A stretch of 58,556 nucleotides of DNA from a virus (lineage: Duplodnaviria > Caudoviricetes), in IMG/VR virus record IMGVR_UViG_3300042363_000211, positions 1 through 58,556 of that record. One strand, 5' to 3'. Below, piece by piece: positions 32,948-58,556 of the stretch (within the stretch, counting starts at the first letter, position 1; each line of letters begins with the position of its first letter). The notes under the pieces are model-generated. The model did no database searches and had not been told where the DNA came from. It was given only the letters and a program-made list of their open reading frames with translations. The translations under genes and the position numbers were made by a program.

Positions 32948-33139
32948 GTGAGATTACCGCGCCGTGTCCCCCAGAAGATCAAAGACGGAATAGGAGGTAG
33001 AGCTTTCTTTGCATACCTATCCCTGATTGTCTTCGTGTTTGCCACGCCTATTGGAGTATTCATGATCAACCCATCCTACGGTTTCATCTCGCTTGGCGGT
33101 GCCTCTCTTGTTAGCGCATGGATTCTAGGGGCTGAATAA
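32948..33139 (+). CDS. Small two-TM membrane protein preceding the portal
   Basis: Two hydrophobic helices; TAATG coupling to the portal start. Confidence 0.6.
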   Translation: MRLPRRVPQKIKDGIGGRAFFAYLSLIVFVFATPIGVFMINPSYGFISLGGASLVSAWILGAE

Positions 33140-41387: not shown

Positions 41388-42725
41388 TTAGGCTTCTGGA
41401 GCGCTGTCGAAGTCAATCTTGACGAATGCTTCTGGACGCTTAACCGCAAGTGCGAGACGCTGTTCGGCGAGAACCACGATTGCGTTACGAACGAAGAAGT
41501 CTGCGTGCTGTTCGCTGATGCGAATGCTTGCTTGTTCACGGTCGTACAACTGTGCTGCTGTACCGAATGCACCAACAAGTGCTTCGCCTTCTGGGATTGC
41601 TGGGGTGTCAATGACTGGCATACGCCAGATACGAGCCTCTGAACCGAGTTGCATCGAAACTGCCATGAGGTATGTACCTTGGGTGTTCTTTGTCAATTCG
41701 ATATCTTCCCAGTCGTTCGGGTGAAGAACAACGCCAGTTGGCTCGTAGTAAGCCAAGAATGCCAAGGTTGCGGCGCGACGAATCGCATCTGCCTTGGTGT
41801 CAACTACTGGTGTGTTTGCGCCGTCTGACCAGTTGTATTCCTGAACGCCAGGTGTGTTGAGCACGCCGAGAAGGTTCTCGCCTGTGCCGTCACCTTGGAG
41901 GATTTGGAAATCTTCCTGAAGACGAAGACCGTACATGAGCTCGTTGTCGATGATTGAACGCAATTGTGGTTCATCAGCAAGAACGTTGCGGTGTGCAGCT
42001 TCCCAGTGGGCCAACGTACGAACAGGAGCCTGATGGCCTTCAAAGACCATTGACGACTGTGGCTTGGCGGCAAAGTTGCTACCTGAACGCTGTGCTACTG
42101 GACCTGCGTTGTTTACCGCAGTTGTACCTGGAGTGGTAAATCCGATTTGGCGGAAGTACTCAATCACGGCTGCTGTGGTTGTACGTGCTGGGAACAGGTC
42201 GCGGACGCGCTTTGTACGCATTGGTGGGATCACCATTGCATCGCGCTCACGGGTTCCGAAGCCGAGGAATGACAAGCCAGATGTGTCTACAAGGCTGCTG
42301 TAAACATCCTTCTGACCGTACTGACCGGTGAGGTCTCCACCGTTGACCATGAATGGTGAAGGCATGTTTGCGCCGTTCTTGCCACCTTGGAGGGACTTGA
42401 ACTCTGCTGAGTCCAAGAACATTTGACCAAGGCTCTTGTAGCCACTCTGCTTTGCGAACTCATGACCAGCTGCTGCAACTGCTGCAACTGATTCGTTCAT
42501 TGGCTCGTCTGACCAGCTCTTTACAGAACCCATTGACTCAAGACCCTCAATGAGGCCCTTGATGTCTTTGATGTCGCGCATGTTCTTGTCGAACGCGCCC
42601 TTCTGTTCTGTGGAGACTACGACTGTGCCGTCTTCTATCTTGAATGAGTCTGCGATTGCCTTATTGTCGGCCATCTTTACTCGGAGAGCTTCTTGTAGCT
42701 CGTTGATCCTTGCCTTGTCGGTCAT
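41388..42725 (-). CDS. Major capsid protein (HK97 fold, N-terminal delta-like domain)
   Basis: KPQS, VRTLAHW, ILQGDGTG.NL.G, HPNDW, GEALVGAF and F.RN....LAE.RLALAV.RPEAF; AAGGA RBS. Confidence 0.95.
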   Translation of the reverse strand: MTDKARINELQEALRVKMADNKAIADSFKIEDGTVVVSTEQKGAFDKNMRDIKDIKGLIEGLESMGSVKSWSDEPMNESVAAVAAAGHEFAKQSGYKSLGQMFLDSAEFKSLQGGKNGANMPSPFMVNGGDLTGQYGQKDVYSSLVDTSGLSFLGFGTRERDAMVIPPMRTKRVRDLFPARTTTAAVIEYFRQIGFTTPGTTAVNNAGPVAQRSGSNFAAKPQSSMVFEGHQAPVRTLAHWEAAHRNVLADEPQLRSIIDNELMYGLRLQEDFQILQGDGTGENLLGVLNTPGVQEYNWSDGANTPVVDTKADAIRRAATLAFLAYYEPTGVVLHPNDWEDIELTKNTQGTYLMAVSMQLGSEARIWRMPVIDTPAIPEGEALVGAFGTAAQLYDREQASIRISEQHADFFVRNAIVVLAEQRLALAVKRPEAFVKIDFDSAPEA

Positions 42726-42863: not shown

Positions 42864-45800
42864 CTATTTCTTGACCATCGGATAGGGGATAGATTCAACA
42901 CCAGATACGGGCACATCGGCCACTACGCCTTTACCCATCTTCTTCAGGCTCTTCTGCATTAGTTTGTAGTAAGCGACGATGTCTTTGTTTGTTTCGTCAA
43001 CATCAGAATCCTCAATAGAAACACCCGAAATTGCTGCTCTATAGATCATTTGCCGGGTCTCTGGAGACAGCGTAGGCTCGTCTCCTAGTCGGTCGTAAAG
43101 CTTGTCTGTCGGCACAACAACATCGTTCGCAGTGACTGTTCGCCCACTTGAAACATGGTGACACATTGTTGTTGAATAGAAGTTGTCATCGTCGGCAGTG
43201 AGAGGAATTGGGGTCTTGTTGTCTTCCGTGGCGGGAGTGTCTGGCTTCATAATCAACTGAGGCATGGATGAAAGTTTCCCACTTGCATCAGCCTTGGTTG
43301 CTGGCTGCTCTGGAATCAGACCAGCTTTCCTTGGAGGGATAGCACCAGTAGTGATCGTTGCGGCGTTCTGTGCTTGCAGTTCTGTCTCAAGAGCCTTCTT
43401 GGCGAGGGCACCCTCAACAAGCGAAGCATGAGCCTGGTAAGCAGCCTCTTCACCATGTCGGTCAAACCCACGTCCCGTAGCGGCATGGCCGAAAGCGTCA
43501 TGAATTGCTCTGAATCTGTCACTCTGTTCATCGTCCCACAATGGGTGTTTCTCGTCTGGTGTAGTCCGTTTGACTTTGAGAGTCTTGTTCATCTCAATGT
43601 CGTCAATCATCTCAAGATGGCTTCTGTACGGGTCGTTGTCTACAAACTCAACGTTGATACCCATGTCCTTGGTAAGCAAGGAATATAGGCGATCGGTTTC
43701 TGTACGCAGGTCTTCGTACGCCTGTTCGGCTTCCTTAGACACGACTTCCATCTCCTCGTAAGCGCGGGCAAGTTCCTGCCTTCTCTCCTCGGTCACAGCC
43801 TTAACCTTTGAGTAGTCCACCCCTCCAGGAAGGACAGCAGCAAGTGCGGGTGATGGTTCAGCAATTATTGAGTCAAATCCTTCAATCTTGGCGGTGCGTA
43901 TCCTGCGATCAGCGACTCGCTTTGATGCGATGAACCTTGCTTTGCCTTCTTCGGCGAAATAGTTGACATCTTCATACTTCTGAACCGAGTTCTGTGACGC
44001 TTTGCCCAGAATATGCTTCCAAGCTTCCTGGTCGTGAACGACAAGAGTCCCATCTTTGTAGGCGGCAATCGTGTACGGATTACTGTGATCTTCGTTGTTT
44101 ACGATTTCAAGATCGTCATAGACCCCATTCTGAAGACCATGCAATACGGCTCTCGCAACGTCAATGTGCGTATCAATAACAACCGACGGAGGAACTCCCC
44201 TGCCTGTCTCTTCCTGCCTTCTCTCAGCCTCAGATACAGCCATAGAGATAGGGACATCAGCGATTCTTCCCTTGATGATGTAGCCATTCTCCCTAAGAGC
44301 ATTCATTCTTTCAGCAAACGCCCTTGGGCCTCCATCGCCAGTACTGTCAACTACTACATGAAACCCTTCTTCGGAGGCTCTCTTGATTGCAAGTTTCTGA
44401 ATGTATGTTGATTCCGAATGAACAAGTTCTGCTGCTTGCAAAGGATCCATTCCTCTTTCCTGCAACTCTTTGACGAGAGTGTCAAACTCAGGAAGCATGT
44501 GCTTGATTTCGTCGGCATCAAGATGAACGGCTTCATTACCGCGTTGAGGCGTATCAAAGAAACCACCCTGCCTGAGGAATGTCTTTCCGCTTGCAGGTCC
44601 TCCACCCATCATCCAAGCCATTGGCTTGTCACTCCTGCGAGGTGACCATTCACCGTTGCCAAACATGATTGACTCAATGATTGAATCGTGAAGGGCTTGC
44701 CTCTCGGGAGTTATCATCCCTGACCCAAGACCAAAGTGCTCAAATGTGCTTGTCATCTTGCCGTTTGGTTGGATTAAATCGTCTACTGATGCGCCCTTGT
44801 GATCCCCAGCAGGTGCTGGCGCATGTGCGAAATCTCGTTGAGTTTGAACAAGCCTGTAGTGGCTCTTTCTTGATGGAAGCAAACCCCTCAACCTTGAGGA
44901 CGCCAGCGGCTGAGGAACATCTTGAGTGATGTCTGGTACGAAGATGTTCTTCTCTGGTTCGCCACCTCTGAGTTCGTTAATAGTTTCTTCAATCCTCGTG
45001 GAGATACCTCGCGCAATTCGTCTGTTCTCTCGACCCGTGGAACCTTCTGACGAAACAACACGCACCCTTGACTTTGGTTTCCTGCCACGGACACGTGATC
45101 CAGCACCTCTGACAGCATCTGCTACATCGGTTGCGAAACCAACGAAACGACGCTTCAACGGTTCGTTCTCATCAATCCAACCATCACGATCGGCATCACG
45201 AGGGAGAGACTTTGTTGAAACCTCATCTGGATTTCTGATACCACTACAAACCGAAACAAATAGGTCTCCGTTGTCCATAACGGTAAATGCCTTCTTCTTG
45301 CGTTCTGATTTCTCATCAAGCCATTCCGACATCTTTGCCCAACCATCTGCTTCAGGAATGGGGTGACCTAGTTTCTGCGCAGATCGTGTCTCTGCCACCA
45401 TCTCAAAGTTGTTCACATTTGCATAAGGACTCACTTGTGAACGGAAACCAGAGTTGTCTATTGTCGCAACTTCTTCATCGGAAAGTCCGTCAAACGGTCT
45501 TGACGACCACAAATCATCTATTGCCTGATAGTTCTCGGTCATGAATAGCTGTCTTGCGAGAAGACGAGCCTCTGTCGTGGACATGCCTTCGGCGACAAGC
45601 TTGGCCTCTATTTCATTGATTGCATCACTTGTTTCTCGCGGAGAAAGACCATTCATTTCCCCTGCTTTGTCAACACCATCAAACCCAATCTTGAAACCGA
45701 TATCTTCAAATGACTTAGAGAAATGAAGAACATGACTCCATTCGTGAGTAGAAACATAAGCACCGTACATCTCATCAATGTCTGATTCTGGAATCCCTTT

Positions 45801-47462
45801 CTTCAATGCGTCCCTCACAACCGCATCACACCAGCCATCGGTAGATTTAGGATTAGCAGGAATATTCTTTACTGCTCCTCTGCCTACTGTCGGATTGATG
45901 TCAATGTAGCCACCAATCTTGCCGTTACGAACCATAACCCCAGCAAGACCGATATAACCACCAATGCGATTATTGTGAATCATTCTGCCAGTTGAAGACA
46001 ACACCAACATTCCATCGGCATACTTCTTGCTGTTCATTCCTTCATGTAATAATCCGATAATGACACCACGCAAGGTTGCTGGGATTTCTCCATCGTTCTC
46101 TTCGATATCAAAGTCAAACTCAACGAGCTTCTTGAACACCTTCTTCAGTGCTTTGTGGGCCTGTTTCTCTGTCTTTATCTCGCCAAACCTCTGTTCGACG
46201 GTCTCTTTCATCTTTGCGTAATTAGCAATAATGTTTGCTGGATCAGAATCAACACGTTTCTTCTCATCGTTATCTCCACCAAGAGGCATCAGAGCAGCGC
46301 GACGTCCTGGTTCACCAACCATCCTTGTTGGTGCTGGCATCTCTCGAGTTTCGCCATCGTAAACAACACCATCTCCGTCACCGTCTAACGGGATAGCACT
46401 AGAAAGGTTTCTAGGAATCTTTGGCAACGCTTTGGTCTGTTGACCCCAAGGATGTTCTTTCTTCAGAAGGTCATTATCGGCGATGTATTTCGGATTATCC
46501 GGCCTGCCAGAAGAAAGCATCTTGAGATACGCCTCTACTCGCATCTCTCCCCATTTGGATCTATTACCTAAATCGGGTCGGTTGAGTGAGTCGAAAGCAG
46601 CAACACCACGCCTCATGACGGACTTCAGTTCCGAAGCAGAAGCAAACGACCATTGAGGCATCCCAACTGATCGCATCTTCACGTTGTGTTCCCTCGCGGC
46701 GACAATCAACGACTTAGTTGCGTCTTGAGTGATTGAAACAGATTTAGCGTTCCTCCTGCTAGTCCTGCTTCCACGGATTGATTTCTTGCTTCTAGAGAAA
46801 GCTGAGGCTCTCGCTACTTCCCTGCGAACAACGCGTTCAATTCTTTGCTGTTCAATACGTCCACGTTCGTTCCTGTACGCACCCTGACCCGTACGACGAT
46901 CAAAGGTCACCCCCGTAGTACAAGGCATCCATACCTGCCTGCCGGAAGATGTTGTGTACCTGCGAATACCAGTACAACCGACTTGAGCGGCCCTCATACG
47001 TGCAGCGTCGGGACTAGTGAAAGTGTCTGGATCTCCAACCTCTGGAGTGAAAGGTGCAATACCTTTACCTCCGCCACCCATGTCGCCTGTTATCCCTGGG
47101 CCAGATCCACTAGAAACAATCCCACCCATTGGACTCGCCGGCATAGCTGGAGGAGCAGAAACAATCCCTGCTGATGTGCCAACCATTCCGTAACTTCTCT
47201 CGGTGAGTTTCTCCCACCGTTTACGATCAACAAGTTTGCGGCGTTTCCTACCTGACGATGAAATCTTTATTTCATTCGCAGCCTTAGGCATAGAGAACGG
47301 CACTTCAAGATTTGACCCTGCAGCTTCGGATAAACGGTTCAGTTCTTCTGCGCTCCCACAAGGCATCCATGTGCCATCAACTTGATGTGCGCCAGAACAA
47401 CCAATGTTCTTGGCCATCTCAAGAGCGTCGTCTTTAGAAACTGATTTCTTCTTATCAGCCAT
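42864..47462 (-). CDS. Giant multidomain protein: 2x WMPC repeats, HExxH metallopeptidase, Zeta-toxin kinase and HDxxGH domain
   Basis: GC.G...WMPC x2; THEWSH plus SPYA..N..EMVAE; GGGPASGKT, DADEIK, VHSES and VVDSTG; FRAIHDAFGH...GEE. TGATG coupling at 47462 (the track start is 47471). Confidence 0.85.
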   Translation of the reverse strand: MADKKKSVSKDDALEMAKNIGCSGAHQVDGTWMPCGSAEELNRLSEAAGSNLEVPFSMPKAANEIKISSSGRKRRKLVDRKRWEKLTERSYGMVGTSAGIVSAPPAMPASPMGGIVSSGSGPGITGDMGGGGKGIAPFTPEVGDPDTFTSPDAARMRAAQVGCTGIRRYTTSSGRQVWMPCTTGVTFDRRTGQGAYRNERGRIEQQRIERVVRREVARASAFSRSKKSIRGSRTSRRNAKSVSITQDATKSLIVAAREHNVKMRSVGMPQWSFASASELKSVMRRGVAAFDSLNRPDLGNRSKWGEMRVEAYLKMLSSGRPDNPKYIADNDLLKKEHPWGQQTKALPKIPRNLSSAIPLDGDGDGVVYDGETREMPAPTRMVGEPGRRAALMPLGGDNDEKKRVDSDPANIIANYAKMKETVEQRFGEIKTEKQAHKALKKVFKKLVEFDFDIEENDGEIPATLRGVIIGLLHEGMNSKKYADGMLVLSSTGRMIHNNRIGGYIGLAGVMVRNGKIGGYIDINPTVGRGAVKNIPANPKSTDGWCDAVVRDALKKGIPESDIDEMYGAYVSTHEWSHVLHFSKSFEDIGFKIGFDGVDKAGEMNGLSPRETSDAINEIEAKLVAEGMSTTEARLLARQLFMTENYQAIDDLWSSRPFDGLSDEEVATIDNSGFRSQVSPYANVNNFEMVAETRSAQKLGHPIPEADGWAKMSEWLDEKSERKKKAFTVMDNGDLFVSVCSGIRNPDEVSTKSLPRDADRDGWIDENEPLKRRFVGFATDVADAVRGAGSRVRGRKPKSRVRVVSSEGSTGRENRRIARGISTRIEETINELRGGEPEKNIFVPDITQDVPQPLASSRLRGLLPSRKSHYRLVQTQRDFAHAPAPAGDHKGASVDDLIQPNGKMTSTFEHFGLGSGMITPERQALHDSIIESIMFGNGEWSPRRSDKPMAWMMGGGPASGKTFLRQGGFFDTPQRGNEAVHLDADEIKHMLPEFDTLVKELQERGMDPLQAAELVHSESTYIQKLAIKRASEEGFHVVVDSTGDGGPRAFAERMNALRENGYIIKGRIADVPISMAVSEAERRQEETGRGVPPSVVIDTHIDVARAVLHGLQNGVYDDLEIVNNEDHSNPYTIAAYKDGTLVVHDQEAWKHILGKASQNSVQKYEDVNYFAEEGKARFIASKRVADRRIRTAKIEGFDSIIAEPSPALAAVLPGGVDYSKVKAVTEERRQELARAYEEMEVVSKEAEQAYEDLRTETDRLYSLLTKDMGINVEFVDNDPYRSHLEMIDDIEMNKTLKVKRTTPDEKHPLWDDEQSDRFRAIHDAFGHAATGRGFDRHGEEAAYQAHASLVEGALAKKALETELQAQNAATITTGAIPPRKAGLIPEQPATKADASGKLSSMPQLIMKPDTPATEDNKTPIPLTADDDNFYSTTMCHHVSSGRTVTANDVVVPTDKLYDRLGDEPTLSPETRQMIYRAAISGVSIEDSDVDETNKDIVAYYKLMQKSLKKMGKGVVADVPVSGVESIPYPMVKK

Positions 47463-47758
47463 CACACCCACGTACGAATGTACTTCTCCGCAATCCTTGC
47501 GTTTCTACCTGTCATCTCCATTGACGAACAACCAGAGAACCGGTTATTCCAACTGTCAACATAGTCGTAGTAGAACTCTTCAGCCTCCTCTGGATCAAGA
47601 GATAAAGAGTTGCCGTTTAGCACCCCAAGTTTGCTCTTGTACGGCGACCCAGCGGGAGCATGGAACCTAAGCATTCCGTTCCTGAGAGTAATCATCGCAA
47701 TCGGTTTATCGTCTGACCCAACATCGGTGTTGTATACCAGGGCAACCATGTCTTTCAT
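47462..47758 (-). CDS. Small hypothetical protein between the giant ORFs
   Basis: 98 aa; start and stop overlap both neighbours. Confidence 0.65.
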   Translation of the reverse strand: MKDMVALVYNTDVGSDDKPIAMITLRNGMLRFHAPAGSPYKSKLGVLNGNSLSLDPEEAEEFYYDYVDSWNNRFSGCSSMEMTGRNARIAEKYIRTWV

Positions 47759-48189
47759 AGCGAGTCCTTCATTGCGAGAGAGTTAAGGAAAGCAGCCATT
47801 GTCTCTGATTCTGATCCTATAGCCCATTCGGAATCCTCAATCACCAAAGGTCTAATCAATGAATCTTTGTCTCTGTCTAGAGTGTCAATGATGATTCCTG
47901 AGTCAATCTTGTTCAGTGACGCAGGTTTCAGAATCAAATAAGGAAGATCTAACGGAGCTAAAGAAATAACACCTTGTCCGTTCTCGTCCACTAATGATCC
48001 AGACATAATCACCATTCTTGCCGTGGGATCGTTGAGATAGGAGTGAACCATCGGCCTGTCCGTGCCGAACATTTGTATTTCTTCTTCGTCAGGATCGTCT
48101 GACTTTGATGTGGTTGGCCATGGGGCGACCTTCTCGTACTCCGACACAAGGTCGGCGAACTCCATCACTCTCTTTGATTCACTAGCCAT
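47755..48189 (-). CDS. Small acidic hypothetical protein after the giant ORF
   Basis: 144 aa; starts 2 nt after the giant ORF's stop codon. Confidence 0.65.
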   Translation of the reverse strand: MASESKRVMEFADLVSEYEKVAPWPTTSKSDDPDEEEIQMFGTDRPMVHSYLNDPTARMVIMSGSLVDENGQGVISLAPLDLPYLILKPASLNKIDSGIIIDTLDRDKDSLIRPLVIEDSEWAIGSESETMAAFLNSLAMKDSL

Positions 48190-48191
48190 GA

Positions 48192-51100
48192 TTACGCCAC
48201 CGTCTTTCCTGGTACATCAATCTCCGCACCGTTAAAGAAGGTATTGTAAACAGTCACTGCAGCGTTCTTCCCAATCAGTTGCTCTAAGCCTAAATTGCTA
48301 AGAACACGATAGTTTCCAGCTGCATCCCTAACGACATGGAACTTGACATCAGCATTCTCTGAGGCGGCCTTCAATGCGCGCTTCTTTGCTGTGGTCACAT
48401 TAGGAGTCTTCTTCAACCCCTTGTCACCCCAGTAGAAATAAGCGGAATTAAGATTTGTTGGTATGTCGCCTGGAAGTACAACCAATTCTTCTGTTGGCTT
48501 ATTGAGAGAAGACTTTGACGCAACGCTGAATCCGTGAAGCGAACTGCTTGAGAAATTAGGGCCAAGCATCTTTCTTGCGCCGTCAGGAGACGCAATGAAG
48601 AAGTCCTCTACGGGGATGCCGTTAATTTCATCAATACCTTGGTCTTTGTAAATCTTGATGAGGTTCAACCTTCTGTTTGCGGAGTATCCACCATTTAGAA
48701 CGACACCCTTCATCTTGTCTAGTGTCGCCGCACCATCAGGAAGGAACTCGAAAGTTTCTTTCTTACTCATGTTGCCAACAGATGTCTTAGAGGAAACCGA
48801 GTTAATCCTTCCACTATCAGGGTTGATTACGCCGAATGGGCCATCATGAGGACCATGTGCCCACCATCCGATATCTCGGAGCATTGCTTCACCATCAAAG
48901 ATGACATCGGTTCCACGGGTGGTCCATACATCCTTGTGCTTCCCAGTAGTAGCCACAGGGGTCATGAATACTCCCTTGCCACCGCCGGTACCAAGATCTT
49001 CTTGTGCCGAGGCTCCACCGCCACCGCCACCAACCGATGTTCCACCAAGACCGAATCCTGCTGTTACCTGATCAGCCTTACTTAGTACTCCACCAGAAGT
49101 AATCATGCGCGTAATGTTTGCCTCATCGGCGTATGCGTTCATCGTCTTAATCATCACATGACCAGATTCTTTGAGACCAGGGTTGTTGGTCTGCACTCGA
49201 GCCCATGCTTCGTCACTAAGCCTGAACCTCATGCGACCCATAGAGTCAAAGTAAGGCTCAAGATCGTTGACCGTTAGTCCTTGCTCTGAAGCAACTCTTG
49301 CTAGTCGCGTTCCGAGTGGTTCTTTCATCTTTGTTGGATCAAACCCATCGTATGTCCTCACCAACAGTTCGGCAGCCTGTGCTTTCCATTGGTCATCAGC
49401 TGTGTAACCAGAATCCTTGATGCCTATCTTTGCAAGAACATCATGTACCTGTTGAGGGGTTGGTGCCGTGTCGCCTGCGAAATGAACCTGCACAGTACCT
49501 GCCGTTGAGTACGCACTTCCTGCGGTTCCTGTATTGACGATGATTACATGTCCCTCTTCAGTCTTTGCGATGATATGAGCCGAGGCGGTATCTCCAGCAG
49601 TTCCACCGATTTCCGTCAAATTAGAGTTGTAACCGTTGGGGTCTCCAAGATCAGCAGTGCGTGGATCCGCTTTGAGAACTCCGTTATCCGTCCTGAAGAA
49701 CTTATGTTGTCCTCCGATAGACAGGATTTCAACACCTGAACCAGAGGCATCAATCTTTGCTGCCAAGGAAGCCGCTAAAGCCTTTGCCTCATTGTCATCA
49801 ATAGCCAGTGTCATTGTTGTCAGGTTTGGGGCACCGCCGGCTACTGGTGTTACATGGATTCTTGCCCCGCCCTTGACCTGTCCGCCACCGATTGAAACAT
49901 AATGATGGCTTCCGACATTTGCCTGTGCAGCTTCAAGTGCCGAAGTGACCGTCTTTGCATTCGGAAGAGCTGGAGCGTTTCCGAACGCTTCTTCACCAGC
50001 AATCGGTTCAGCCTTCGTCATCTTGGAAACCGTTTGACCAGGTGAAGTTACTTTCTTCGGAGTCTTTGACGCCTTGAGTAGACCAGTACCGACTTCGTTC
50101 TCAACCGTCTGACGTGCAGTAGCAATTTCTTCGTCGGACATTCCGAGTTCTTTCAGCATTGGATCAACATACGAGGCAATCCTTGCTTTCTTCTCATCAA
50201 GCCTTTGTGCTGATTTCCTGACAGTTGCTGCGTTTGCGCCGGAAAGGTTCTGACCAGAAATCAACTTCTCCGCTTCTTCTGCGTAATCAGTTGTCTCTGC
50301 GCGATGAACAGCGTGAAGTACTGCCTCAGCGAAACGTTGCTTGCGTTCTGGGGTCGTCATTGACTCCTTGGCAAGTTTCCATGTTCCATCACCATCAAGA
50401 CCCGTAAACATGAAACCAAGCTTGTCTTCGGTTGCTTGAGAGTTTGCACCCTTCGGCATCTTGTTGCCGTCTTTGTCAAAGAACTTGTGTTGCTTGAAAT
50501 CACCGAAAGCGTTACCGTGGTCAATTGGGTGGTATTGAACCGTTCCATCTGGGTTCTCAACAGCAATCCAGTTATGACCTTGCCTGTCGTAGTACCTAAA
50601 CATTGAGTCCATGACGACTCCGCCTGCAAGCGACTCTGGAGTAAGCCTTGAGATAACCTCTTCGCGCTCAGCTTTAGGCATATCCCTGACATGGCCAAGG
50701 TTCTTACCTTCGTAAAGCATCTCTGAAGACTCAAGAAGAACGCTGAACTGTTCGGATTCAGGGTTGGAATCTGGATGCGAGTATTGGGCATACTTATTTG
50801 GTGCAGTAAAGATGACGCTTGCCGTACGACCACCAGACGATGGGAAACCAAGGGTCTGCATGACTTGGTTGCCGAATAGTTCGCGTGCTCCTTCTTGGTC
50901 GTTCCTCGTGGCTGACTTGAGAACAAATGTATGTCCCGTAGCGGTATCAAGGAAACGATGAGTCTTCTTCTTCTCGTCGGGAGCGTACGAGTCGTTGTAT
51001 CCAGATGCCTTTGAGAGGAACTTGAAACGCCCACTCTTTCCGGCTCCTTCACGGTGCTGCCAAATTGCTTCAAGAAGCAAGTCGTTAGGAACGTCTGCAA

Positions 51101-54100
51101 GGCTTCCGCCCGTCGCAATGAAGTCATCAAGTTTGGCTGCTTCCGTTGCAATCAGTTCGTCACTTGCGTCCGTTGGAAGACCAGAAGGAACGAACTTTCC
51201 AATTGCTACTCCGTTCGGGGCTGATACACCAAGGTTCTCAATTCCTGCGTATCCCTCCTTAACCTTCGGCATGCCTGGCGAAGTCATCAAGTCCATGACA
51301 TCGGTTGCGTCAGCAATAGGAATGCTTCCTGGTACTGCGTTAGTGAATATCGCTTCGGGAGCCGCCATGTTGGCGTTGATGGCTTCCTCCATGTCAATCA
51401 CGGCGTACTTGTCGTCTGAAATCTTAAAGATTCCAAGTTGTTGACCCTGTTTCAGAATCGGGGCAATTGCTGTTGCAACATCAGCAGCCTGCTGAACGCT
51501 AGGTGAGTTCTCATGGAATACTGACCCCTGCTTCAGGAAACGTTCTTCTCCGTCAACGATAAGCACGGTCTTGCCTGCATATTTCTTGTCCTTGAACTGA
51601 GAAGCAATTTCTTTGATTTGTTTCTCTGTTCCAATAGAAGCCTTCATCTTCTGCTTTGCCGAGATGTAATCAGTAATATGTTCAGCAGTTGACTTGTCGC
51701 CAAGCACGCCGCTATTCAAAGCTTCTGCGGCTTCTTCCATCATCTTCTTAGCGATGTTGGCTTGTTCTGTAGCATCGTTAATTGCTGGCAATAAATCTTT
51801 CGGATCGTTGTACACGCCAGCAAGAAGGTTCTTGTTAACCTCAGCAACGGTTTCCATTGAGTCAAGGTTGTAGGCGGCGTTATTTGCAAGCCATGCCTTT
51901 GCTGCCTGGCGGCGAATGAGAGTACTGCGCATCTTCGTTACGAAGCTGTCGTGATCAAGACCCTTCTCGGTAAATGCGGCCTTGATTTCGTCTTCTGACA
52001 TCTTTGATATGTCTTTACCATCAAAGACCATGTCAAATTGCTTCTTCATGTCAGCCAAACGAACGTTTGCTTCTTCCAACTTCTTGCTTGCGAGGGAAGA
52101 CCCACCACCGTCAAGTTTCTCTGCCCAATTATTCGCAACAGCAAATGTGGCAGCAGCATCAATTCCTTCTGCTTCCATCCAGTCGTTGTCGTCTGGATTG
52201 CTCAGCACTTTGCCGATCGTCTTGGATGAATCCGATGTCATTTCACCGACATAGTCCGTGTACGAACCTGAAGAATCAAATCCCCCAATCTTCTGGAAGA
52301 TTGCTGGATACTTATCTGCAAGGAGGATATTAGATCCCTTTATTCTCAGAATTACTGGATCAGCATCGCCAAACTTGACAGAGTAGAAAGCCATTTCTTC
52401 ATCAGGGCCTTTGCCGTTGTTGATTTCAACCTGAACCTGCTCAACATAGTGAGCGATATTCTGTCTTGACTCTTCGTTGTCAAGACCAAGAAGGTCGGAA
52501 GTTGAAGATATAAGTCCAGAGTTCTGAAGTGCGTATGCGTTTGGAAATCCATCCAATGTCATTGCTGGCTGATTCATCCAAGCAGTGACTACGTCAAGTT
52601 TCTCTGATTCCGTGAGGTCAACGAAGTCGTTTGGAAGCTTGCCTGTGCCAACTTCACTTCCAGCCCATGTTGACCACACAGGCTTAATGTCGCGAATAAC
52701 AGCAAACTGATCCTGCTGTTCTCCCGTGAGGGCTTTCCATTCACTTCTCTTGACGACATGGAATAATCCATCTGAGTCCTTAACGACCACGCCACCATTT
52801 GATCCAAACTTCTCGTAGAAGTCTTTGTCGAAAGTCTTACCAGCATCTGTCGAGTAGAGGTTGATGTTGTCAAAGTTCTTACTGCTTGAATCCATGAACG
52901 CATGTTCAAACGGGTTGACAATATCGTTAATGAGGGAGTATTCGTCAGAAGTACTTAACGATGCCTTCTCAAAGAGTGGAGAACCTTCAGAAGGAGTGAA
53001 GTCACCCTTGACCCATTGTGTAGCAATACTTCCACCGATGACCCCAGCAGGAATTGGATTGCCATCGGAGTCCTTGCCGTCGTAGGAGTACATATGCGGA
53101 ACCGTTTCCTGCCATGCCCCTAGTTCGTCGTTCTTCGTGAACTTCTCATCAACCCAGTATCCAACCTTGGAGTCATCGTTCTCGAAATAATGGAGGATGC
53201 CAGTCTTACCCTTGAACTTGGGCGCATTGCCGTCGTTGACTTCTTGGTTTGCTTTCTCCCAGTCAGAAACAACACCGAGGATTGCTCCTTCTGGTGCTGC
53301 GTCAATGAACGCCTGGTTGATCTTTCCACCACCAGCTTTGACTTCTTCAATCTGGGCAGATACAGCAGACGCGCTGGTGTTCTGAATCTTCGGTGCTTCT
53401 GGTTCTGGAGGATTGACAGACTCTTCAATCTTCTTAATGTCCTCAGCGACTTGCTTCTTCGTCTGCTTCTTCGTGCCAATCTTTGCAAGAGCTGCTTTCT
53501 TAAAGTCCACTTCGGAGTTAGAAAGACTCTTGATAATACCCTTCTGTGCGGACGGCCCGAGATGGTTGAACCGGTCTATGGCTGTCATGTCGGGAGCGTT
53601 CTCTGACGAGTATGAACCGTCCCTTGTCAGAACATCAAAGTTGTGCAGATGGGTTCTGAGAGCAGCAATTTCACCAATGTCGTCACCGTTCTCAACCTTG
53701 GAACGTAATTTCTCAACAAGAGACTTCCTGAGTGCTCTTTCTCCCGCTACTGACTTGACCACCCATTGTTCACCAGTCTCACCATCTGGAAGGTTTGTCT
53801 CTTCAAGATAAAGAAGACTTGTGTCTGCGATGCCGGACTTTCCTAGATAGTCAATGAGGTTGTCTTTGGCGGCACCAAGTTCCGTGGAGATAACTAGTTC
53901 TGTTGCATTATCTTTGTCGGCAGCATCAATCTGCTTGCTCGTCTTGAAAGGTACTGGCGAGTCTGGGCTTACTTTCTTCGGATTGTTCTGTGCGTAATCA
54001 AAGTCTTCAAGTAATTTCTTCTTGAGCAAATCACCTTTCTCGTTGATGATGTTCTTTATCGCTTCGTAATCAAGGGCTTTCTTGGCTTTATCTAGCTTGG

Positions 54101-57100
54101 CATCAAGTTCACCAATGACTGACTCGTAATGTATGTCCCTTTCCGCTTGGGACATGGATGCGGTTTCTTTGACCGATACGGACTTCGGAAGGTTCTGTGG
54201 CGAGAATAAATCTTCACCACTGATCTTGTAGCCGATTTCTTCCGCCAGTTTCTCTCTGGTGTAATCAATGTCAAGCATTAGTGATTGAAGTTCGTTAACC
54301 TTGCCAGTCTCGTCGTCAATCTTCAAGTCAGAAATGTAATCAGTCAGCTGCTTTCTCAGGTCATCCAACGCTTGAAGCTTCTGTTCATCGCTCAAAGTTG
54401 AATCAGAAATCTCGTTGAAGATATTCTCCGCGTTGACTATGTTGTAAATCTTCTTGTCTGAGTCCAGATACCAAGAACCCTTGAATCCGGATGTATCAAA
54501 TGCGTTCTCAAAGTCTTCCAACGCGGCATCAAGATAGTCAAGCTGCTCTGTTACGAGGTCGCCCAACGGGCCATCTTTGCCAAGGCTCTCAAGTTCGTAC
54601 TTGATGGTTGCGTGCTGGTTAAGCCAGTCTGCTTTCTGAGATTCCGTCCAGTTGGCTACATCGGTGTCTTGGAAGTTGTCAATCAGATTGGCGACGTTGT
54701 TTGTCTCCATATCCAATTTCGGAGCAATCTCCATAGCTTTCTCTGTATCAAGATTGAGAGAGAGTTGTTCAATTTCCTTGTAGACATCATTTGAGGCAGC
54801 ATCCATCTCTGCCGCCTTGTCAATTTCCTCATCAATCTTTAGATCGCTTGAGTACTTGTCAATTTCGTACTTGAGATCCCAGAGATCATTCATCTTGTCG
54901 ATGGTGTCTTTGTCGGAACCAAGGATTTCCTTCACCGTGTTCTTGTAGCCAGAAAGAGCAGACCCGGTTGGAGACTCTTTCTCTTCGGTGCCCATCGCCT
55001 TGATCTTCTTCTTGGCTGCAAGACCATAAGTCTTGGCGGCATTCTTGAAGTCTTTAGGGGTCAATCCAGTAATGGCTTCTGTTTCTAGAAGCCGAATAAA
55101 CACCTCGGCTGCGTCCATCTCGGCAGGATCTTCTGACCCCAACATCCTCTCAGCGAGAGCGTCCATGAGTTTGAGCTTGTCGTAACCGTCGTACTTACCG
55201 CCAGGCTTGAGGTCGTCGGCGATTTCCTTCATCTGCGATTCAACATCCTTGAAGTGACTCTTCGCCTCTTCGCGCACCGTTGTGCCGTTCATGTCGGCTA
55301 TATCTTGCCCTTTACCGTCCACCCATGCGTCAAGACTAAGGTCGGGACCCAAATCGGTCATCGGATCCATAACAGCACCTGTTGCTGGGTTGAACCATGT
55401 GGGGTTCTCGTCCTTGCCAAGAGGTTTGTTATTCTTGACGGACTTCTTGGTTTCAAAGTACTTACTGGCCTTAGCGAAAGAATTAGACAGTAGGAGGCTT
55501 CTAGCGTGAGCATCAAGATACTTGTCAAGGTTCTCCTGATTCGGAATAGCCGTGTACATCGCCACCGAAGCTTGATAATCCTTCTCCGCTTTCTTGCGAT
55601 CAGCAATCCACTTCTTGCTGTCAAACGAACCGTCAGGCTTCGTGTAAGCCTCGTAGTTAGCGCCAACGCTGTCTTTGAACTTCTTAGCTGCCACGGTCTC
55701 AAGTGCAGTCATTTCTTTGGTGAAACGCTTTGGAAGACCAGTACTTTCAAGCACGTCGCCAGCATCTACAACTTCCTTAGATGCACTCCTCTTCATGCCG
55801 TATGTTTCGGCCATCTCTTTGAGGGTTTCAACACTAACAATGTACGGAGGCTGAGTAGACCCAGAAGGAATTGGCTCTACTGAACCGTCTGTCTCGAAAC
55901 CATCAAGTTTCTCGTACCAAGCATCAACCAATTTCTGGTCAGGCTTAGGCTTACTCTTCCCGTCCCATGAAGGCCCGTACAAACCTTGAAGCATTGCATC
56001 AAGTTCATCCTTGAGTGAATCATGCTCTTTGAGAGAAAGTTTCTTCTTCTCAACCTTGGACTTATCAAGTTCGGCCTTGAAGAACTCGTCTACGACATCC
56101 TGAATATCTTTGCCTGTGCCAATGGTTAAATCAATGATTGCAATGTTGTTTCGTATACCTACAAGTTCGTCTTCATAATCGTTGTAGGCACCGAAAGCCT
56201 GTATCTCCATCGGAGTCAAAGACTCAAGTTCGGCAAGAGCCTTCTCAAAGACCTTCTTGTACTCGGTTAGTTCTTTGTCGGAGTAAACACCCGCCATTGA
56301 GGCATTAAGAGATTCAGCATCCGCCAAGGTAGACAGCTTCGCTTCCAAGGCGTCGTCAAGTTCCTTCTTAGTAGGAACCTTCTCCATCGTCTTTAGGTAC
56401 GAACCATTGATCTTGGCAAGCTCTTCCCGGAGGATGTCAACAACCTTGTTCTGTTCATACGAATCAAGAATGTCGTCCAATTCAGCAATAGACATCTCAA
56501 ACGAGTCTTTGTCTCCGTTGGTCCATTCGGATGATGGTTTGGTCAAATCTTCTTTGAGTATCGCCATTGCGAACTGGATTTGCCCGCTCTGCCCTGTCGT
56601 AATCTTCTTTGGCTTGGATTGTTTCTCAGGCTTGATTCCGTCTTGGGTGTTTGTCTCGGCGGCCTTTATCTTCTCGTCAAGGATCTTGATGTACTTATTA
56701 GCCCAGTCAACGGCAGGACCTTCTTTGCCAATTGAATCACGCATATCCTTCCAGGCTTCGCGTACCTTCTTGAGTGTTGCGGCATCGCCGTCTGTGGACA
56801 GTTTGTCCCACGACGACTCGGGGTGTTTACCGATCAACGGCCAGTTCTTCAGGTTTGGTATTTCCTGCGGGCCACCTGTCCATGTGGGGGATTCATCTAC
56901 AATCTTACCCTTGTCTGCATTTGGGGTTGCGTCTTCTTTCGGCTTGAAAGCTGGTGCAGGCTTGAAGTACTTCTGGTCGGATGTGTAAACAGGCTTAATA
57001 CCCATTGCATCAAGACGATCTTGATCCACAACCCTGAAACCTTGATCCGTCTCAACGACGTGATACAGACTGCCATCAGCAGAAGAAAGTTCGTTGGCGC

Positions 57101-58556
57101 GCTTTGCTGCTGACTTCTCGTTCTTGAACGGCCTGCCGAACTGCTTGCCACCAAGTTTCGGGGTCTTCTTCTTTGCGTCGTCAACAACTTCAGTCTTCGG
57201 AAGAGTCTCATCAAGCGTAGGCATTGGTGGTTCGCCAGGAATCTCACCTACGGGTTTCGGCTTGCTTTCCTTCTTTGGCTTCTTGACCGGGTCGGTCATT
57301 CCCCATGCGACTTCGTTTCCTTTATGATCGAAAGAAGCAACAGGTTCAATACCTAAAGCTTGAAGTTTCTCGTCGTCAACAAGAGTGGCAAGCCCGTTAT
57401 CTAATTTGACAACATGGAGATGGTCGCCCTCTTCAAAGTCTTTGTCTGGATAGACGCTGTTCTTGATGTTTCGAGCCTGATCAATGGCTGTATCGGTGGT
57501 GGCAAACTTTCCTCCACCAGACCAACCAGCCGTATCATCAAGAGCTTTCTGGCTTGTTGAATCTTTCTTCTTCTTTACTGGTGCGCCATCACGCGCAATC
57601 ATTGAACCGGCCTTGTAGGAAGCAATTGGCTTAGCCTTCATGGCTTTCATGCGTTCGTCGTCAACGACAATCATCTTGCCGTCTTCGTCCTTTACGACAT
57701 GAAATACGACATCTTTCTTCTTGCTTGATGCGTCCTTTGCTCCAAGGAGTGCAGAGTTCTGATCTTTGTGGGCGGTACCAAATGCTTTACCAGGGAGTTT
57801 CTCTTCCGATACGGCAGTAGCGGTCATATCCTCAGCAGCGGCTGATCCAGATGGTTTCTTCTTCCAGTTCTCAATCGCTTCGGCCCACGCATCAGGTTCT
57901 TCTACAACTTCAGGTGTCTTTGGTGTTGGCGTTACCGCTTCTGGGATATCGGCTTCAGGAGCATCTGCTTCTGGTGCCTTCGGCTTGCGTGGCTTCTCTG
58001 GTACTTCTGAAGGTTTGTCTGTCGGGGAAAGACCGAGATAGTCCATCACCCTTGTCTTCTTCGGCTTCTTCGGCTTCAGTTTCCTTGCTTCAACACGAGA
58101 AGCGACATCGTCAAGACGACCTGCAATACGCTCTTTGAGTGGCCCACGCTGTTCGCGCCTGCTCTGCCTCTCATCAAGCTTGTCTGCGCCTTGTTCAAGA
58201 ATGTTTGCAAGCCTGCGCTTGCCTTTCTTGATCTTCCTCTTGGCGCGCTGGGTGATGCTAGGGCGTTCCCATGGAGTGTTGTCTTGAACTAACCCGTCAC
58301 CGTCAGCGTCCTGCGCATCGGGGTCATAAGCCTGTGCCCCTCTGCCGATGCTACCGAGGGCTTTGATATCAATGTTGCCGATGCGATCAGCCCAGACAAT
58401 CATTGAATCGGCATTAGCAAGAGACTTGTGAGCGATTTGCGCCCGTGAAGAGAAAGACTTTGTCGCTACTTCAATGCGATCAGAGTGAACCCGGTCAAGA
58501 GAACCGTACGGAAGACTTTGATCTAAGGGGTAGACGATTACATCAACGTCAGAAGA
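48192..58556 (-). CDS. Giant (>3450 aa) multidomain protein with HVV repeats and a HipA/PI3K-PI4K-like kinase domain; 5' end lies outside the window
   Basis: The frame stays open for 51 codons upstream of ATG 58403 to the window edge (SSDVDVIVYP...ATKSFSS...HKSLAN). Kinase motifs FVLKS, ARELFG, DRQGHN and IDHGNAF; DADGDGLVQD near the visible N-terminus. Confidence 0.85.
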   Translation of the reverse strand, partial: SSDVDVIVYPLDQSLPYGSLDRVHSDRIEVATKSFSSRAQIAHKSLANADSMIVWADRIGNIDIKALGSIGRGAQAYDPDAQDADGDGLVQDNTPWERPSITQRAKRKIKKGKRRLANILEQGADKLDERQSRREQRGPLKERIAGRLDDVASRVEARKLKPKKPKKTRVMDYLGLSPTDKPSEVPEKPRKPKAPEADAPEADIPEAVTPTPKTPEVVEEPDAWAEAIENWKKKPSGSAAAEDMTATAVSEEKLPGKAFGTAHKDQNSALLGAKDASSKKKDVVFHVVKDEDGKMIVVDDERMKAMKAKPIASYKAGSMIARDGAPVKKKKDSTSQKALDDTAGWSGGGKFATTDTAIDQARNIKNSVYPDKDFEEGDHLHVVKLDNGLATLVDDEKLQALGIEPVASFDHKGNEVAWGMTDPVKKPKKESKPKPVGEIPGEPPMPTLDETLPKTEVVDDAKKKTPKLGGKQFGRPFKNEKSAAKRANELSSADGSLYHVVETDQGFRVVDQDRLDAMGIKPVYTSDQKYFKPAPAFKPKEDATPNADKGKIVDESPTWTGGPQEIPNLKNWPLIGKHPESSWDKLSTDGDAATLKKVREAWKDMRDSIGKEGPAVDWANKYIKILDEKIKAAETNTQDGIKPEKQSKPKKITTGQSGQIQFAMAILKEDLTKPSSEWTNGDKDSFEMSIAELDDILDSYEQNKVVDILREELAKINGSYLKTMEKVPTKKELDDALEAKLSTLADAESLNASMAGVYSDKELTEYKKVFEKALAELESLTPMEIQAFGAYNDYEDELVGIRNNIAIIDLTIGTGKDIQDVVDEFFKAELDKSKVEKKKLSLKEHDSLKDELDAMLQGLYGPSWDGKSKPKPDQKLVDAWYEKLDGFETDGSVEPIPSGSTQPPYIVSVETLKEMAETYGMKRSASKEVVDAGDVLESTGLPKRFTKEMTALETVAAKKFKDSVGANYEAYTKPDGSFDSKKWIADRKKAEKDYQASVAMYTAIPNQENLDKYLDAHARSLLLSNSFAKASKYFETKKSVKNNKPLGKDENPTWFNPATGAVMDPMTDLGPDLSLDAWVDGKGQDIADMNGTTVREEAKSHFKDVESQMKEIADDLKPGGKYDGYDKLKLMDALAERMLGSEDPAEMDAAEVFIRLLETEAITGLTPKDFKNAAKTYGLAAKKKIKAMGTEEKESPTGSALSGYKNTVKEILGSDKDTIDKMNDLWDLKYEIDKYSSDLKIDEEIDKAAEMDAASNDVYKEIEQLSLNLDTEKAMEIAPKLDMETNNVANLIDNFQDTDVANWTESQKADWLNQHATIKYELESLGKDGPLGDLVTEQLDYLDAALEDFENAFDTSGFKGSWYLDSDKKIYNIVNAENIFNEISDSTLSDEQKLQALDDLRKQLTDYISDLKIDDETGKVNELQSLMLDIDYTREKLAEEIGYKISGEDLFSPQNLPKSVSVKETASMSQAERDIHYESVIGELDAKLDKAKKALDYEAIKNIINEKGDLLKKKLLEDFDYAQNNPKKVSPDSPVPFKTSKQIDAADKDNATELVISTELGAAKDNLIDYLGKSGIADTSLLYLEETNLPDGETGEQWVVKSVAGERALRKSLVEKLRSKVENGDDIGEIAALRTHLHNFDVLTRDGSYSSENAPDMTAIDRFNHLGPSAQKGIIKSLSNSEVDFKKAALAKIGTKKQTKKQVAEDIKKIEESVNPPEPEAPKIQNTSASAVSAQIEEVKAGGGKINQAFIDAAPEGAILGVVSDWEKANQEVNDGNAPKFKGKTGILHYFENDDSKVGYWVDEKFTKNDELGAWQETVPHMYSYDGKDSDGNPIPAGVIGGSIATQWVKGDFTPSEGSPLFEKASLSTSDEYSLINDIVNPFEHAFMDSSSKNFDNINLYSTDAGKTFDKDFYEKFGSNGGVVVKDSDGLFHVVKRSEWKALTGEQQDQFAVIRDIKPVWSTWAGSEVGTGKLPNDFVDLTESEKLDVVTAWMNQPAMTLDGFPNAYALQNSGLISSTSDLLGLDNEESRQNIAHYVEQVQVEINNGKGPDEEMAFYSVKFGDADPVILRIKGSNILLADKYPAIFQKIGGFDSSGSYTDYVGEMTSDSSKTIGKVLSNPDDNDWMEAEGIDAAATFAVANNWAEKLDGGGSSLASKKLEEANVRLADMKKQFDMVFDGKDISKMSEDEIKAAFTEKGLDHDSFVTKMRSTLIRRQAAKAWLANNAAYNLDSMETVAEVNKNLLAGVYNDPKDLLPAINDATEQANIAKKMMEEAAEALNSGVLGDKSTAEHITDYISAKQKMKASIGTEKQIKEIASQFKDKKYAGKTVLIVDGEERFLKQGSVFHENSPSVQQAADVATAIAPILKQGQQLGIFKISDDKYAVIDMEEAINANMAAPEAIFTNAVPGSIPIADATDVMDLMTSPGMPKVKEGYAGIENLGVSAPNGVAIGKFVPSGLPTDASDELIATEAAKLDDFIATGGSLADVPNDLLLEAIWQHREGAGKSGRFKFLSKASGYNDSYAPDEKKKTHRFLDTATGHTFVLKSATRNDQEGARELFGNQVMQTLGFPSSGGRTASVIFTAPNKYAQYSHPDSNPESEQFSVLLESSEMLYEGKNLGHVRDMPKAEREEVISRLTPESLAGGVVMDSMFRYYDRQGHNWIAVENPDGTVQYHPIDHGNAFGDFKQHKFFDKDGNKMPKGANSQATEDKLGFMFTGLDGDGTWKLAKESMTTPERKQRFAEAVLHAVHRAETTDYAEEAEKLISGQNLSGANAATVRKSAQRLDEKKARIASYVDPMLKELGMSDEEIATARQTVENEVGTGLLKASKTPKKVTSPGQTVSKMTKAEPIAGEEAFGNAPALPNAKTVTSALEAAQANVGSHHYVSIGGGQVKGGARIHVTPVAGGAPNLTTMTLAIDDNEAKALAASLAAKIDASGSGVEILSIGGQHKFFRTDNGVLKADPRTADLGDPNGYNSNLTEIGGTAGDTASAHIIAKTEEGHVIIVNTGTAGSAYSTAGTVQVHFAGDTAPTPQQVHDVLAKIGIKDSGYTADDQWKAQAAELLVRTYDGFDPTKMKEPLGTRLARVASEQGLTVNDLEPYFDSMGRMRFRLSDEAWARVQTNNPGLKESGHVMIKTMNAYADEANITRMITSGGVLSKADQVTAGFGLGGTSVGGGGGGASAQEDLGTGGGKGVFMTPVATTGKHKDVWTTRGTDVIFDGEAMLRDIGWWAHGPHDGPFGVINPDSGRINSVSSKTSVGNMSKKETFEFLPDGAATLDKMKGVVLNGGYSANRRLNLIKIYKDQGIDEINGIPVEDFFIASPDGARKMLGPNFSSSSLHGFSVASKSSLNKPTEELVVLPGDIPTNLNSAYFYWGDKGLKKTPNVTTAKKRALKAASENADVKFHVVRDAAGNYRVLSNLGLEQLIGKNAAVTVYNTFFNGAEIDVPGKTVA

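Follow-up and report, generated by a model that had tools for sequence, protein, structure and literature searches.

A two-part lysine and acidic leader at unit borders of giant capsid-adjacent proteins in an HK97-like myovirus: a candidate protease site and head-cargo tag

The IMG/VR record IMGVR_UViG_3300042363_000211 (Duplodnaviria; Caudoviricetes) was analysed as a single window that comprises the entire record of 58,556 bp, with an estimated completeness of 39%. The phage is an HK97-like myovirus in which two giant open reading frames (ORFs), designated P0001 and P0002, encode proteins that contain the same two-part leader of about 35-45 residues, namely a Lys element at which a protease probably cuts and, beyond it, an acidic DxDxDG loop. 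This motif is conserved among homologues, stands at the borders of protein units, and is associated with portal, MuF, protease and capsid genes. Sequence comparison suggests that the leader might combine a protease site with a cargo tag on head-associated cargo ("polyvalent") proteins, an interpretation to which we give about an even chance.

Three leader copies are present in the window, one in P0002 and two in P0001 (Table 1), as a preliminary description of this DNA had noted with coordinates that agree with ours to within a few bases. The DxDxDG hexapeptides begin at residues 363 and 759 of P0001 and at residue 83 of P0002, with K[AS]L ahead of them at residues 347, 754 and 65, respectively. 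The first half of the leader reads Lys-[Ala/Ser]-Leu-[Gly/Pro], and the acidic half lies 5-34 residues beyond it and is followed by two hydrophobic residues, a [DE]-G-T element and a Pro-containing tail. Across P0001 and P0002 together, DxDxDG occurs three times against 0.24 expected; three or more occurrences were reached in 5 of 2000 shuffles, and three bipartite copies of K[AS]L plus DxDxDG in none of 2000.

The relation of the leader to unit borders is most readily followed in the P0001 family, in which 26 homologues were found and 16 sequences were aligned (the query plus 15 others, namely the 17 closest without P0007 and P0008, both of which are truncated). In copy 3, all 16 sequences retain P757, D759, D761, D763 and G764, at 43-91% identity. 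The HExxH unit is missing in 12 of the 16, where copy 3 directly follows the DUF5824 domain; a second leader precedes the unit in all four sequences that contain it, and copy 2 is found in these four only. In two other relatives a different insert of about 170 amino acids brings its own DGDGDG copy. Leader copies therefore flank the inserted or absent modules in this alignment, and the motif marks unit borders in homologues, as had been anticipated. The best-supported reading is that P0001 would consist of three exchangeable pieces: a DUF3721/DUF5824 backbone, the HExxH unit, and a unit combining the Zeta kinase with the phrog_3170 domain. The preliminary description had also placed copies 2 and 3 ahead of an HExxH peptidase and a Zeta kinase, and this order is borne out, with the HEWSH motif 213 amino acids beyond copy 2 and the Zeta_toxin domain about 185 amino acids beyond copy 3, a basic linker lying between the latter two. 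The additional K-[AS] sites that it listed at apparent domain borders fared unevenly: the Lys of ATKSF is kept in at least 90% of 14 sequences, and the position of DATKSL reads K-[AS]-L in 12 of the 16 P0001-family sequences at the start of the DUF5824 domain, but HKSL and PATKAD are not conserved.

The individual units of P0001 differ in how far they can be assigned. Inspection by eye and conserved columns reveal a second DUF3721-like, Cys-containing copy at about residues 157-187, in which C166, G168, W181 and C184 are invariant. The HExxH unit conserves H-E-x-x-H plus a further His, that is HExxH(xxH), with H231, E232 and H235 invariant in its alignment (A3); it has no match in Pfam, PHROG, NCBIfam or PDB sequences and no detectable relation to any peptidase family. 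The same unit ends in a nearly invariant C-x-G (window positions about 45225-45260), only a few residues away from the next leader or from the end of the protein. The Zeta domain scores 76.4 bits against a cut-off of 22.3, matches PDB 1GVN_B with an E-value of 2.5e-8, and contains an invariant P-loop block at G956-T964. For the phrog_3170 domain, the homologue in Rhodococcus phage E3 is gp205, whose designation as a "structural protein" is a record label only.

In P0002, leader copy 1 retains D63, K65, L67, D78, P79, A81, D83, A84, D85, G86, D87, V90, Q91, T94 and R98 as invariant positions of a 14-sequence family, and the sixth position of its loop is Met in most members. Both giant ORFs had been described as segmented by the motif, but P0002 is not, because it contains a single copy; the best-supported reading is that it represents one very large unit behind one leader. 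Full-length relatives start 43 residues further upstream than the window-encoded part. A repeat and kinase region had been proposed to follow copy 1, of which the repeats do follow and the kinase amounts to a sub-threshold match only (Table 1), within a block that is nearly invariant in the P0002 family. The repeats are mini-domains of about 60 amino acids centred on [FLY]-H-V-V (xHVV), five in number, at residues 285, 380, 498, 1932 and 3406; three of them stand in tandem after copy 1, preceded by a Lys/Pro/Glu-rich stretch, and one lies at the very C-terminus. A scan of viral contigs for related loci with the P0002 N-terminus as query found nothing.

The leader recurs in many other proteins. 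A HMMER search of 1.84 billion representative proteins with P0001 residues 330-800 yielded 41 matches, 39 of them new. Among 43 HExxH sites in these 39 matches, 36 have the acidic motif 120-340 amino acids upstream, 27 of them with the Lys site as well, an association that is biased because the query was the HExxH unit itself. By our own count the first motif copy falls within the first 50 residues in 27 of the 39 matches, and in many free-standing carriers only 3-10 residues precede the leader Lys. Multi-module carriers have one copy per module, with three in P0047, five in P0066, and four each in P0062 and P0083, both of which are devoid of HExxH; all copies in P0062, P0066 and P0083 fall between Pfam-matched stretches. 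P0062 and P0066 are portal (and MuF) fusions that continue with GNAT and other modules, P0066 being composed of portal and MuF followed by leader-separated modules, and the modules of P0083 are phrog_3170 (here too behind a leader), HipA-like and PI3/4-kinase. Recurrence N-terminal to varied enzymes in head-module genes, on which the preliminary proposal depended, thus extends to HExxH, Zeta-kinase, Arr-like ADP-ribosyltransferase, GNAT, HipA-like and PI3/4-kinase-like units. When the Zeta unit was compared with 28 shorter homologues, a leader was present in the four nearest and absent from the other 24, all generic zeta toxins. A related-locus scan with P0066 as query found nothing, and no cultured phage matched P0048 in a tblastn search. 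As a separate observation, P0028 (1047 amino acids), retrieved in the P0001-family search, joins Phage_portal_3 to a C-terminal Zeta_toxin domain in a direct portal-effector fusion.

A scan of IMG/VR for the codon pattern of DGDGDGF returned at least 120 stretches with at least 126 matches, and the following fractions refer to the 126 matches listed. Fifteen are leaders of the form K-x-L-G ... DGDGDGF-x-T-G-P-D-G-x-D-N-x-P, the Lys site being present in 12 of them; 29 resemble copy 1 and are termed type C, with the signature [FY]-[DN]-P-x-A-x-DGDGDGF-[LV]-Q-D-G-T; and 82 are unrelated, many of them Gly-rich and of low complexity. The two halves of the leader are separable, since the acidic half is also found on its own, with no Lys site, and at the ends of small proteins. 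Twenty-one type-C carriers are small proteins of about 103-135 amino acids (phrog_7924; loci L012, L014, L017, L036, L074, L084 and others), in which a Glu/Pro/Val-rich linker joins a 45-residue N-terminal domain to the acidic motif, which makes up the last 20 or so residues. In the one such locus examined (L074), a siphovirus-type contig, the carrier gene is found just ahead of the major tail gene, and the N-terminal domain of these carriers matches only hypothetical proteins of Arthrobacter and Microcystis phages. Two further settings were observed. The L105 protein (ORF about 749-1412, reverse strand) has two tandem N-terminal acidic motifs, an Ala/Pro/Val linker and, by eye, a peptidoglycan-binding-like C-terminal domain. 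An unrelated family, mostly of about 85-145 amino acids (L007, L018, L025, L032, L042, L047, L051, L060, L087, L112), ends in C-I-[MF]-x-[PA]-DGDGDGF-I-[IV]-G-[EG]-[VI] and represents a different setting of the same hexapeptide.

Genomic context connects leader-bearing proteins with the head module, and many of the DGDGDGF matches listed come from the lineage of the window phage. In seven lineage loci besides L002, the closest relative (92% identical), a leader-bearing ORF lies immediately upstream of a capsid homologue with 66-75% identity, and one such capsid-adjacent ORF has an Arr-like ADP-ribosyltransferase behind the leader. Four lineage loci contain portal-MuF homologues (64-66% identity) followed by an S78 prohead protease fused to a long leader-containing extension. 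One metagenome relative, with 90% identity across the N-terminus of the giant protein, has upstream of the giant gene, in this order, an S78 protease fusion (783 amino acids) and ORFs of 438, 893 and 95 amino acids, the protease gene beginning about 7 kb and ending about 4.7 kb upstream of it; in the window phage this gene is therefore very probably located shortly beyond the window end. Two side observations concern the same loci. L064:2-2443, a leader-bearing ORF upstream of a capsid homologue, encodes several helix-turn-helix and sigma-70 region-4-like domains, and its product is a candidate for an injected transcription factor. In two fusions (L054 and L122) the S78 protease domain is succeeded by DUF6321, which also opens P0014, P0015 and P0018-P0020 of the P0001 family; this points to a P0001 backbone that arose from, or is exchanged with, the C-terminal extension of the protease.

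The Lys half resembles the predicted maturation site of the capsid. The window capsid protein shares 39% identity with HK97 gp5 across 278 amino acids, and its predicted site, Y-K97/S-L-G100 (the slash marking the predicted cut; nucleotides 42426-42437), stands at the end of the scaffold-like N-terminal region. K97 and G100 are invariant in nine lineage capsids, whose sites read K/S[LIV]G or K/TIG. At the end of its scaffold region HK97 gp5 reads FNK-SLGSD, the known maturation site at which its delta domain is removed, and the capsid of Brevibacterium phage Cantare has EAK-SLGEAF at the corresponding place. Leaders in lineage loci read GK-SLGR, EK-ALGR and WK-SLGR, and the window leaders IK-ALG, TK-ALP and TK-SLP likewise resemble YK-SLG of the window capsid. 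The parallel with the HK97 cut site drawn in the preliminary description is thereby upheld, and the S78 (HK97-type) prohead protease of this lineage most likely cuts at the Lys half.

The acidic half was compared with known metal-binding loops. In an EF-hand-type calcium loop, positions 1, 3 and 5 are Asp, position 6 is Gly and position 8 is hydrophobic; position 12 provides an acidic bidentate ligand, and helices flank the loop. All three window loops have Asp at 1, 3 and 5, Gly at 6 and a hydrophobic residue at 8, and among 66 loop instances Asp occupies positions 1, 3 and 5 in 66 (as demanded by the search pattern) and Gly position 6 in 63. The DxDxDG loop is thus similar to EF-hand calcium loops in D1-D3-D5-G6 and hydrophobic 8, but it has no predicted flanking helices, and position 12 is Glu in two of the three window copies and mostly Thr, Pro or Asp among the 66 instances. 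Since position 12 is not consistently acidic, the loop is not a canonical EF-hand. An AlphaFold model of P0002 residues 1-200 (window numbering), built with 13 homologues, has a mean predicted local distance difference test (pLDDT) score of 53 and helices at residues 22-49 and 101-158, with leader copy 1 as coil of pLDDT about 50 and no flanking helices. That DxDxDG might prove an integral loop of a folded domain had been named as a finding that would count against the proposal; the 24 of 28 zeta homologues devoid of a leader and the low-confidence coil point the other way. The model is weak evidence that agrees with the sequence evidence, and the leader appears not to be an integral loop of any one folded domain.

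These observations can be accommodated in a simple scheme. Each independently exchangeable unit would start with a bipartite, apparently unstructured leader; the S78 prohead protease would cut at the Lys half, as it trims the capsid, so that each released unit would begin with the acidic half. There its most likely role would be that of a divalent-cation-binding docking or retention tag, by which cargo would be retained inside the head until its ejection together with the DNA. A docking or retention function of the acidic half is probable and constitutes the weakest step of the argument. Such a scheme retains from the preliminary interpretation a conserved leader that opens separate units; it gives up the segmentation of P0002, and the K-[AS]-L element of copy 3 turned out to be loosely kept. 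A wider version, which we consider possible but doubtful, is that the leader serves as a portable cargo tag in a broad group of HK97-type phages: a protease site and a cation-binding docking peptide would load and release any downstream enzyme, polyproteins as well as portal-MuF and protease fusions would be beads-on-a-string precursors of injected effectors, and the acidic half alone would be a general attachment peptide of the virion interior.

Several points weigh against interpreting the leader as a cut site joined to a cargo tag. The window has no S78 or S77 protease match (S77 as PF03420 at E <= 1), and the N-terminal Lys site of the protease fusions may belong to the protease fold, the HK97 gp4 protease having a Lys at a similar place. 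The pattern K[AS]L[GPN] occurs five times in 6405 amino acids of window head-module proteins (portal residue 17, capsid residue 97, twice in P0001 and once in P0002) and once in 12,004 amino acids of the other 39 ORFs, but the pattern was defined after inspection of the data and the resulting Fisher p = 0.02 is modest. Upstream of copy 3, K-[AS]-L is found in only 4 of the 16 P0001 relatives, the others having TKKEP, TKSDP or AKAAQP, with a Lys present in all 16; several leader copies in portal fusions have Arg or no basic residue nearby. Loop position 12 is Lys or Thr in most relatives, and a mean pLDDT of 53 does not establish that the leader is disordered. Finally, 28 of the 29 listed type-C copies are devoid of a Lys site and 21 of the 29 form the C-terminal end of small proteins, so the leader of a cut polyprotein is not the sole setting of the acidic half, which acts also where nothing needs cutting.

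Some of these points are shared by an account without any cleavage, in which the leader would be a flexible, possibly cation-binding hinge and a conserved junction for cassette-swapping recombination, comparable to the pre-toxin motifs of polymorphic toxins. Inserted or missing modules bounded by two leader copies, an apparent fused remnant of two copies in P0015 and P0020, acidic halves without the Lys site, and the AlphaFold coil over the leader are all consistent with such a junction. A pure recombination scar, however, would not explain 15 invariant positions at about 40% identity, the placement of the leader at the extreme N-terminus in 27 of 39 free-standing proteins, or the acidic motif at the C-terminal end of unrelated small proteins, and the match of the Lys half to the capsid site also argues against it; we consider this account unlikely.

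A second alternative, more doubtful still, attributes cleavage to the HExxH metallopeptidase unit, acting in cis or in trans, instead of the prohead protease. A processing role of this kind has been proposed for the MPTase domain (Iyer et al. 2017, PMC5512222); the unit is the most frequent partner of the leader in the HMMER search, and it combines an invariant H-E-x-x-H and further His with a conserved C-x-G end just before the next leader. That partnership, however, carries the bias of the query; 12 of 16 P0001 relatives keep the leader and have no HExxH unit, P0062 and P0083 have four leaders each and no HExxH, the Lys site resembles that of the capsid, and searches related the unit to no peptidase family.

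The acidic loop might instead be an ejection or arrival signal that keeps cargo extended during passage through the tail, or that folds or anchors at the higher divalent-cation levels of the envelope, which seems quite improbable. The D1-D3-D5-G6 pattern with hydrophobic 8 would fit, as would the two tandem copies ahead of the peptidoglycan-binding-like domain of L105 and the small carriers encoded beside tail genes; against it, units that act in the cytoplasm (Zeta kinase, ADP-ribosyltransferase, GNAT) also carry the loop, and the L105 domain label is putative and assigned by eye. A chance low-complexity Asp/Gly run of no significance would accord with the 82 of 126 listed DGDGDGF matches that are unrelated and often Gly-rich, but its probability is negligible given the shuffle tests, the invariant columns and the flanking signature in 44 of the 126 listed matches. 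Cleavage at the Lys half by the prohead protease, with the acidic half as cargo tag, thus remains the reading that we prefer.

The coordinates of the leaders, domains and genes discussed here are collected in Table 1. The genes identified in the window comprise those for tail fibre, baseplate, sheath, large terminase, a portal-MuF fusion, DNA methyltransferases, ribonucleotide reductase and the HK97-type capsid. The capsid gene lies directly downstream of P0001, on the same strand as P0001, two small ORFs and P0002. An Asp/Arg beta-hydroxylase-like gene (PF05118, E-value 4.8e-18) at 40773-41321 on the minus strand is directly downstream of the capsid gene; a role of its product as a modifier of the acidic loop was considered and rejected, as among the loci retrieved the gene occurs only in L002. 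PAPS-reductase-like genes are found at 23686-24831 (minus strand) in the window and at L126:28-951, where the gene adjoins the head module of a relative.

Table 1. Coordinates of leader copies, protein units and genes in the 58,556-bp window (aa, amino acids; nt, nucleotides).
Feature	Position	Strand	Details
Leader copy 1, P0002 aa 63-100	58257..58370	-	D-I-K-A-L-G ... Y-D-P-D-A-x-DADGDG-LVQDNTPWERP
Leader copy 2, P0001 aa 345-380	46332..46439	-	Q-T-K-A-L-P ... DGDGDG-VVYDGETREMP; opens HExxH unit
Leader copy 3, P0001 aa 752-771	45159..45218	-	S-T-K-S-L-P-R-DADRDG-WIDENEP; opens linker and Zeta unit
Giant cargo ORF P0002	48192..58556	-	3454 aa; 5' end open, cut by contig end
Weak PI3/PI4-kinase-like stretch, P0002 aa 2641-2689	50490..50636	-	18.9 bits, below the cut-off of 27.1 (PI3_PI4_kinase)
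ORF of 144 aa between P0001 and P0002	47755..48189	-	No family match
ORF of 98 aa between P0001 and P0002	47462..47758	-	No family match
Multi-module cargo ORF P0001	42864..47471	-	1535 aa; directly upstream of capsid gene
DUF3721, P0001 aa 12-39	47355..47438	-	E 7.5e-12
DUF5824-like domain, P0001 about aa 245-342	46446..46739	-	End of conserved backbone; DUF5824 matches in homologues P0009, P0014, P0019, P0020, P0023
HExxH unit, P0001 about aa 400-750	45222..46274	-	HEWSH at aa 576-580, nt 45732-45746
Zeta-toxin-like kinase domain, P0001 aa 944-1133	44073..44642	-	Zeta_toxin PF06414, E 2.7e-21
phrog_3170 domain, P0001 aa 1215-1389	43305..43829	-	Homologue in Rhodococcus phage E3
HK97-type major capsid gene	41388..42725	-	Pfam Phage_capsid, E 7.3e-42; N-terminal scaffold (delta)-like region
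Portal-MuF fusion	33139..35328	+	K17-A-L-P near N-terminus, nt 33187-33198

How cargo is chosen and loaded in HK97-like phages, which have no separate scaffold core, is poorly understood, and the capsid-targeting sequence of T4 and the signal of P1 DarB share no consensus. A consensus leader would let effector cargo be read straight from metagenomic phage genomes, and it predicts exact processing sites that are checkable by N-terminomics of virions. It would also offer a candidate tag with which foreign proteins could be brought into phage heads. The gain and loss of enzyme units in head-module polyvalent proteins can be explained by whole cassettes of leader plus unit being inserted or deleted between copies. 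No published description of the leader was found in a literature search by motif and by DUF5824, DUF3721 and DUF6321, nor in term searches within PMC5512222 and PMC5576092, whose supplementary files may list related motifs.

Cultured relatives show a comparable gene arrangement. Actinomycetia phage DSL-LC01, the sole cultured-phage match to P0001 residues 241-800, was tried as a carrier and rejected, having no matching leader: it has the DUF5824 domain in common with P0001 and a 3289-aa gene between portal and capsid, whose giant product contains one loose Dx[DN]x[DN]G match without the flanking signature, and its "maturation proteases" are unrelated to P0001. In Gordonia phage Chidiebere and Brevibacterium phage Cantare, whose capsids are 47% identical, no DxDxDG leader was found; effector-like genes covering 7-13 kb lie between portal and capsid (encoding a VIP2-like ADP-ribosyltransferase, a 971-aa helix-turn-helix protein and an RNA ligase). 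Chidiebere gp26 and gp27 (L127) have in common an N-terminal V-R-x-x-E-[YF]-W-G-x-P-Y-G-T-P-I-T-P-G, with a similar sequence in Cantare gp11 (L128), and this motif may be a second, lineage-specific cargo leader. HK97 itself is alike in its gp5 and gp4 system, with the 39% identical capsid, K-S-L-G at the end of the scaffold region and an S78 protease in lineage relatives, but here the proteases are fused to long leader-bearing extensions, and we know of no effector-cargo string in HK97 that carries the cut site of the capsid. The Leu/Gly/Ile-rich first half of the leader presumably resembles the cargo-loading peptides of encapsulins, which dock inside an HK97-fold shell. The giant phages SPN3US and phiKZ differ in protease family and cut motif. 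Their prohead protease cleaves numerous proteins of the head interior that are delivered into the host, and the abstracts of the two articles concerned report no acidic DxDxDG tag for ejection proteins (PMC7411985, PMC10052503).

The closest parallels are found among known head-cargo systems. According to PMC9024508, T4 internal proteins, which are carried in the head and injected, have a short N-terminal peptide that is removed by the head maturation protease. The leader is similar to this capsid-targeting sequence in being an N-terminal peptide with a predicted cut on head cargo, whereas here relatives have S78 and the window no S77 match, the site follows a Lys, the second, acidic half would stay on the product, and the leader is repeated inside polyproteins. 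The same article describes DarB of phage P1 as a 250-kDa anti-restriction protein sent into the capsid by its first 30 residues, and its authors found no consensus among the N-termini of P1 Dar proteins (PMC9024508). P0002 is likewise giant (about 3500 amino acids), with one conserved N-terminal region and leader, but here a strict consensus holds across unrelated units. The polyvalent proteins of Iyer, Burroughs, Anand, de Souza and Aravind (2017) combine many effector domains per polypeptide beside virion genes, include a Zeta-like kinase fused to MuF, and were proposed to be processed by a Zn-peptidase domain, and the passages of that article examined by term search mention no acidic junction motif or prohead-protease site (PMC5512222). 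P0001 is of this multi-domain type (DUF3721, DUF5824-like, HExxH, Zeta_toxin and phrog_3170) and lies beside virion genes, directly upstream of the capsid gene, with relatives fused to portal and MuF. Jamet et al. (2017, PMC5576092) described MuF polymorphic toxins in temperate phages, which are alike in having variable toxin modules on MuF, as in P0066 with portal, MuF and leader-separated modules, and a term search of the main text found no junction element, cleavage or zeta term. By analogy, the leader would follow the same logic as the T4 capsid-targeting sequence, the P1 DarB signal, and the polyvalent and MuF-toxin proteins. What is new is its strict and widely held consensus, its two-part build, its reiteration at unit borders, and its presence on portal and protease fusions.

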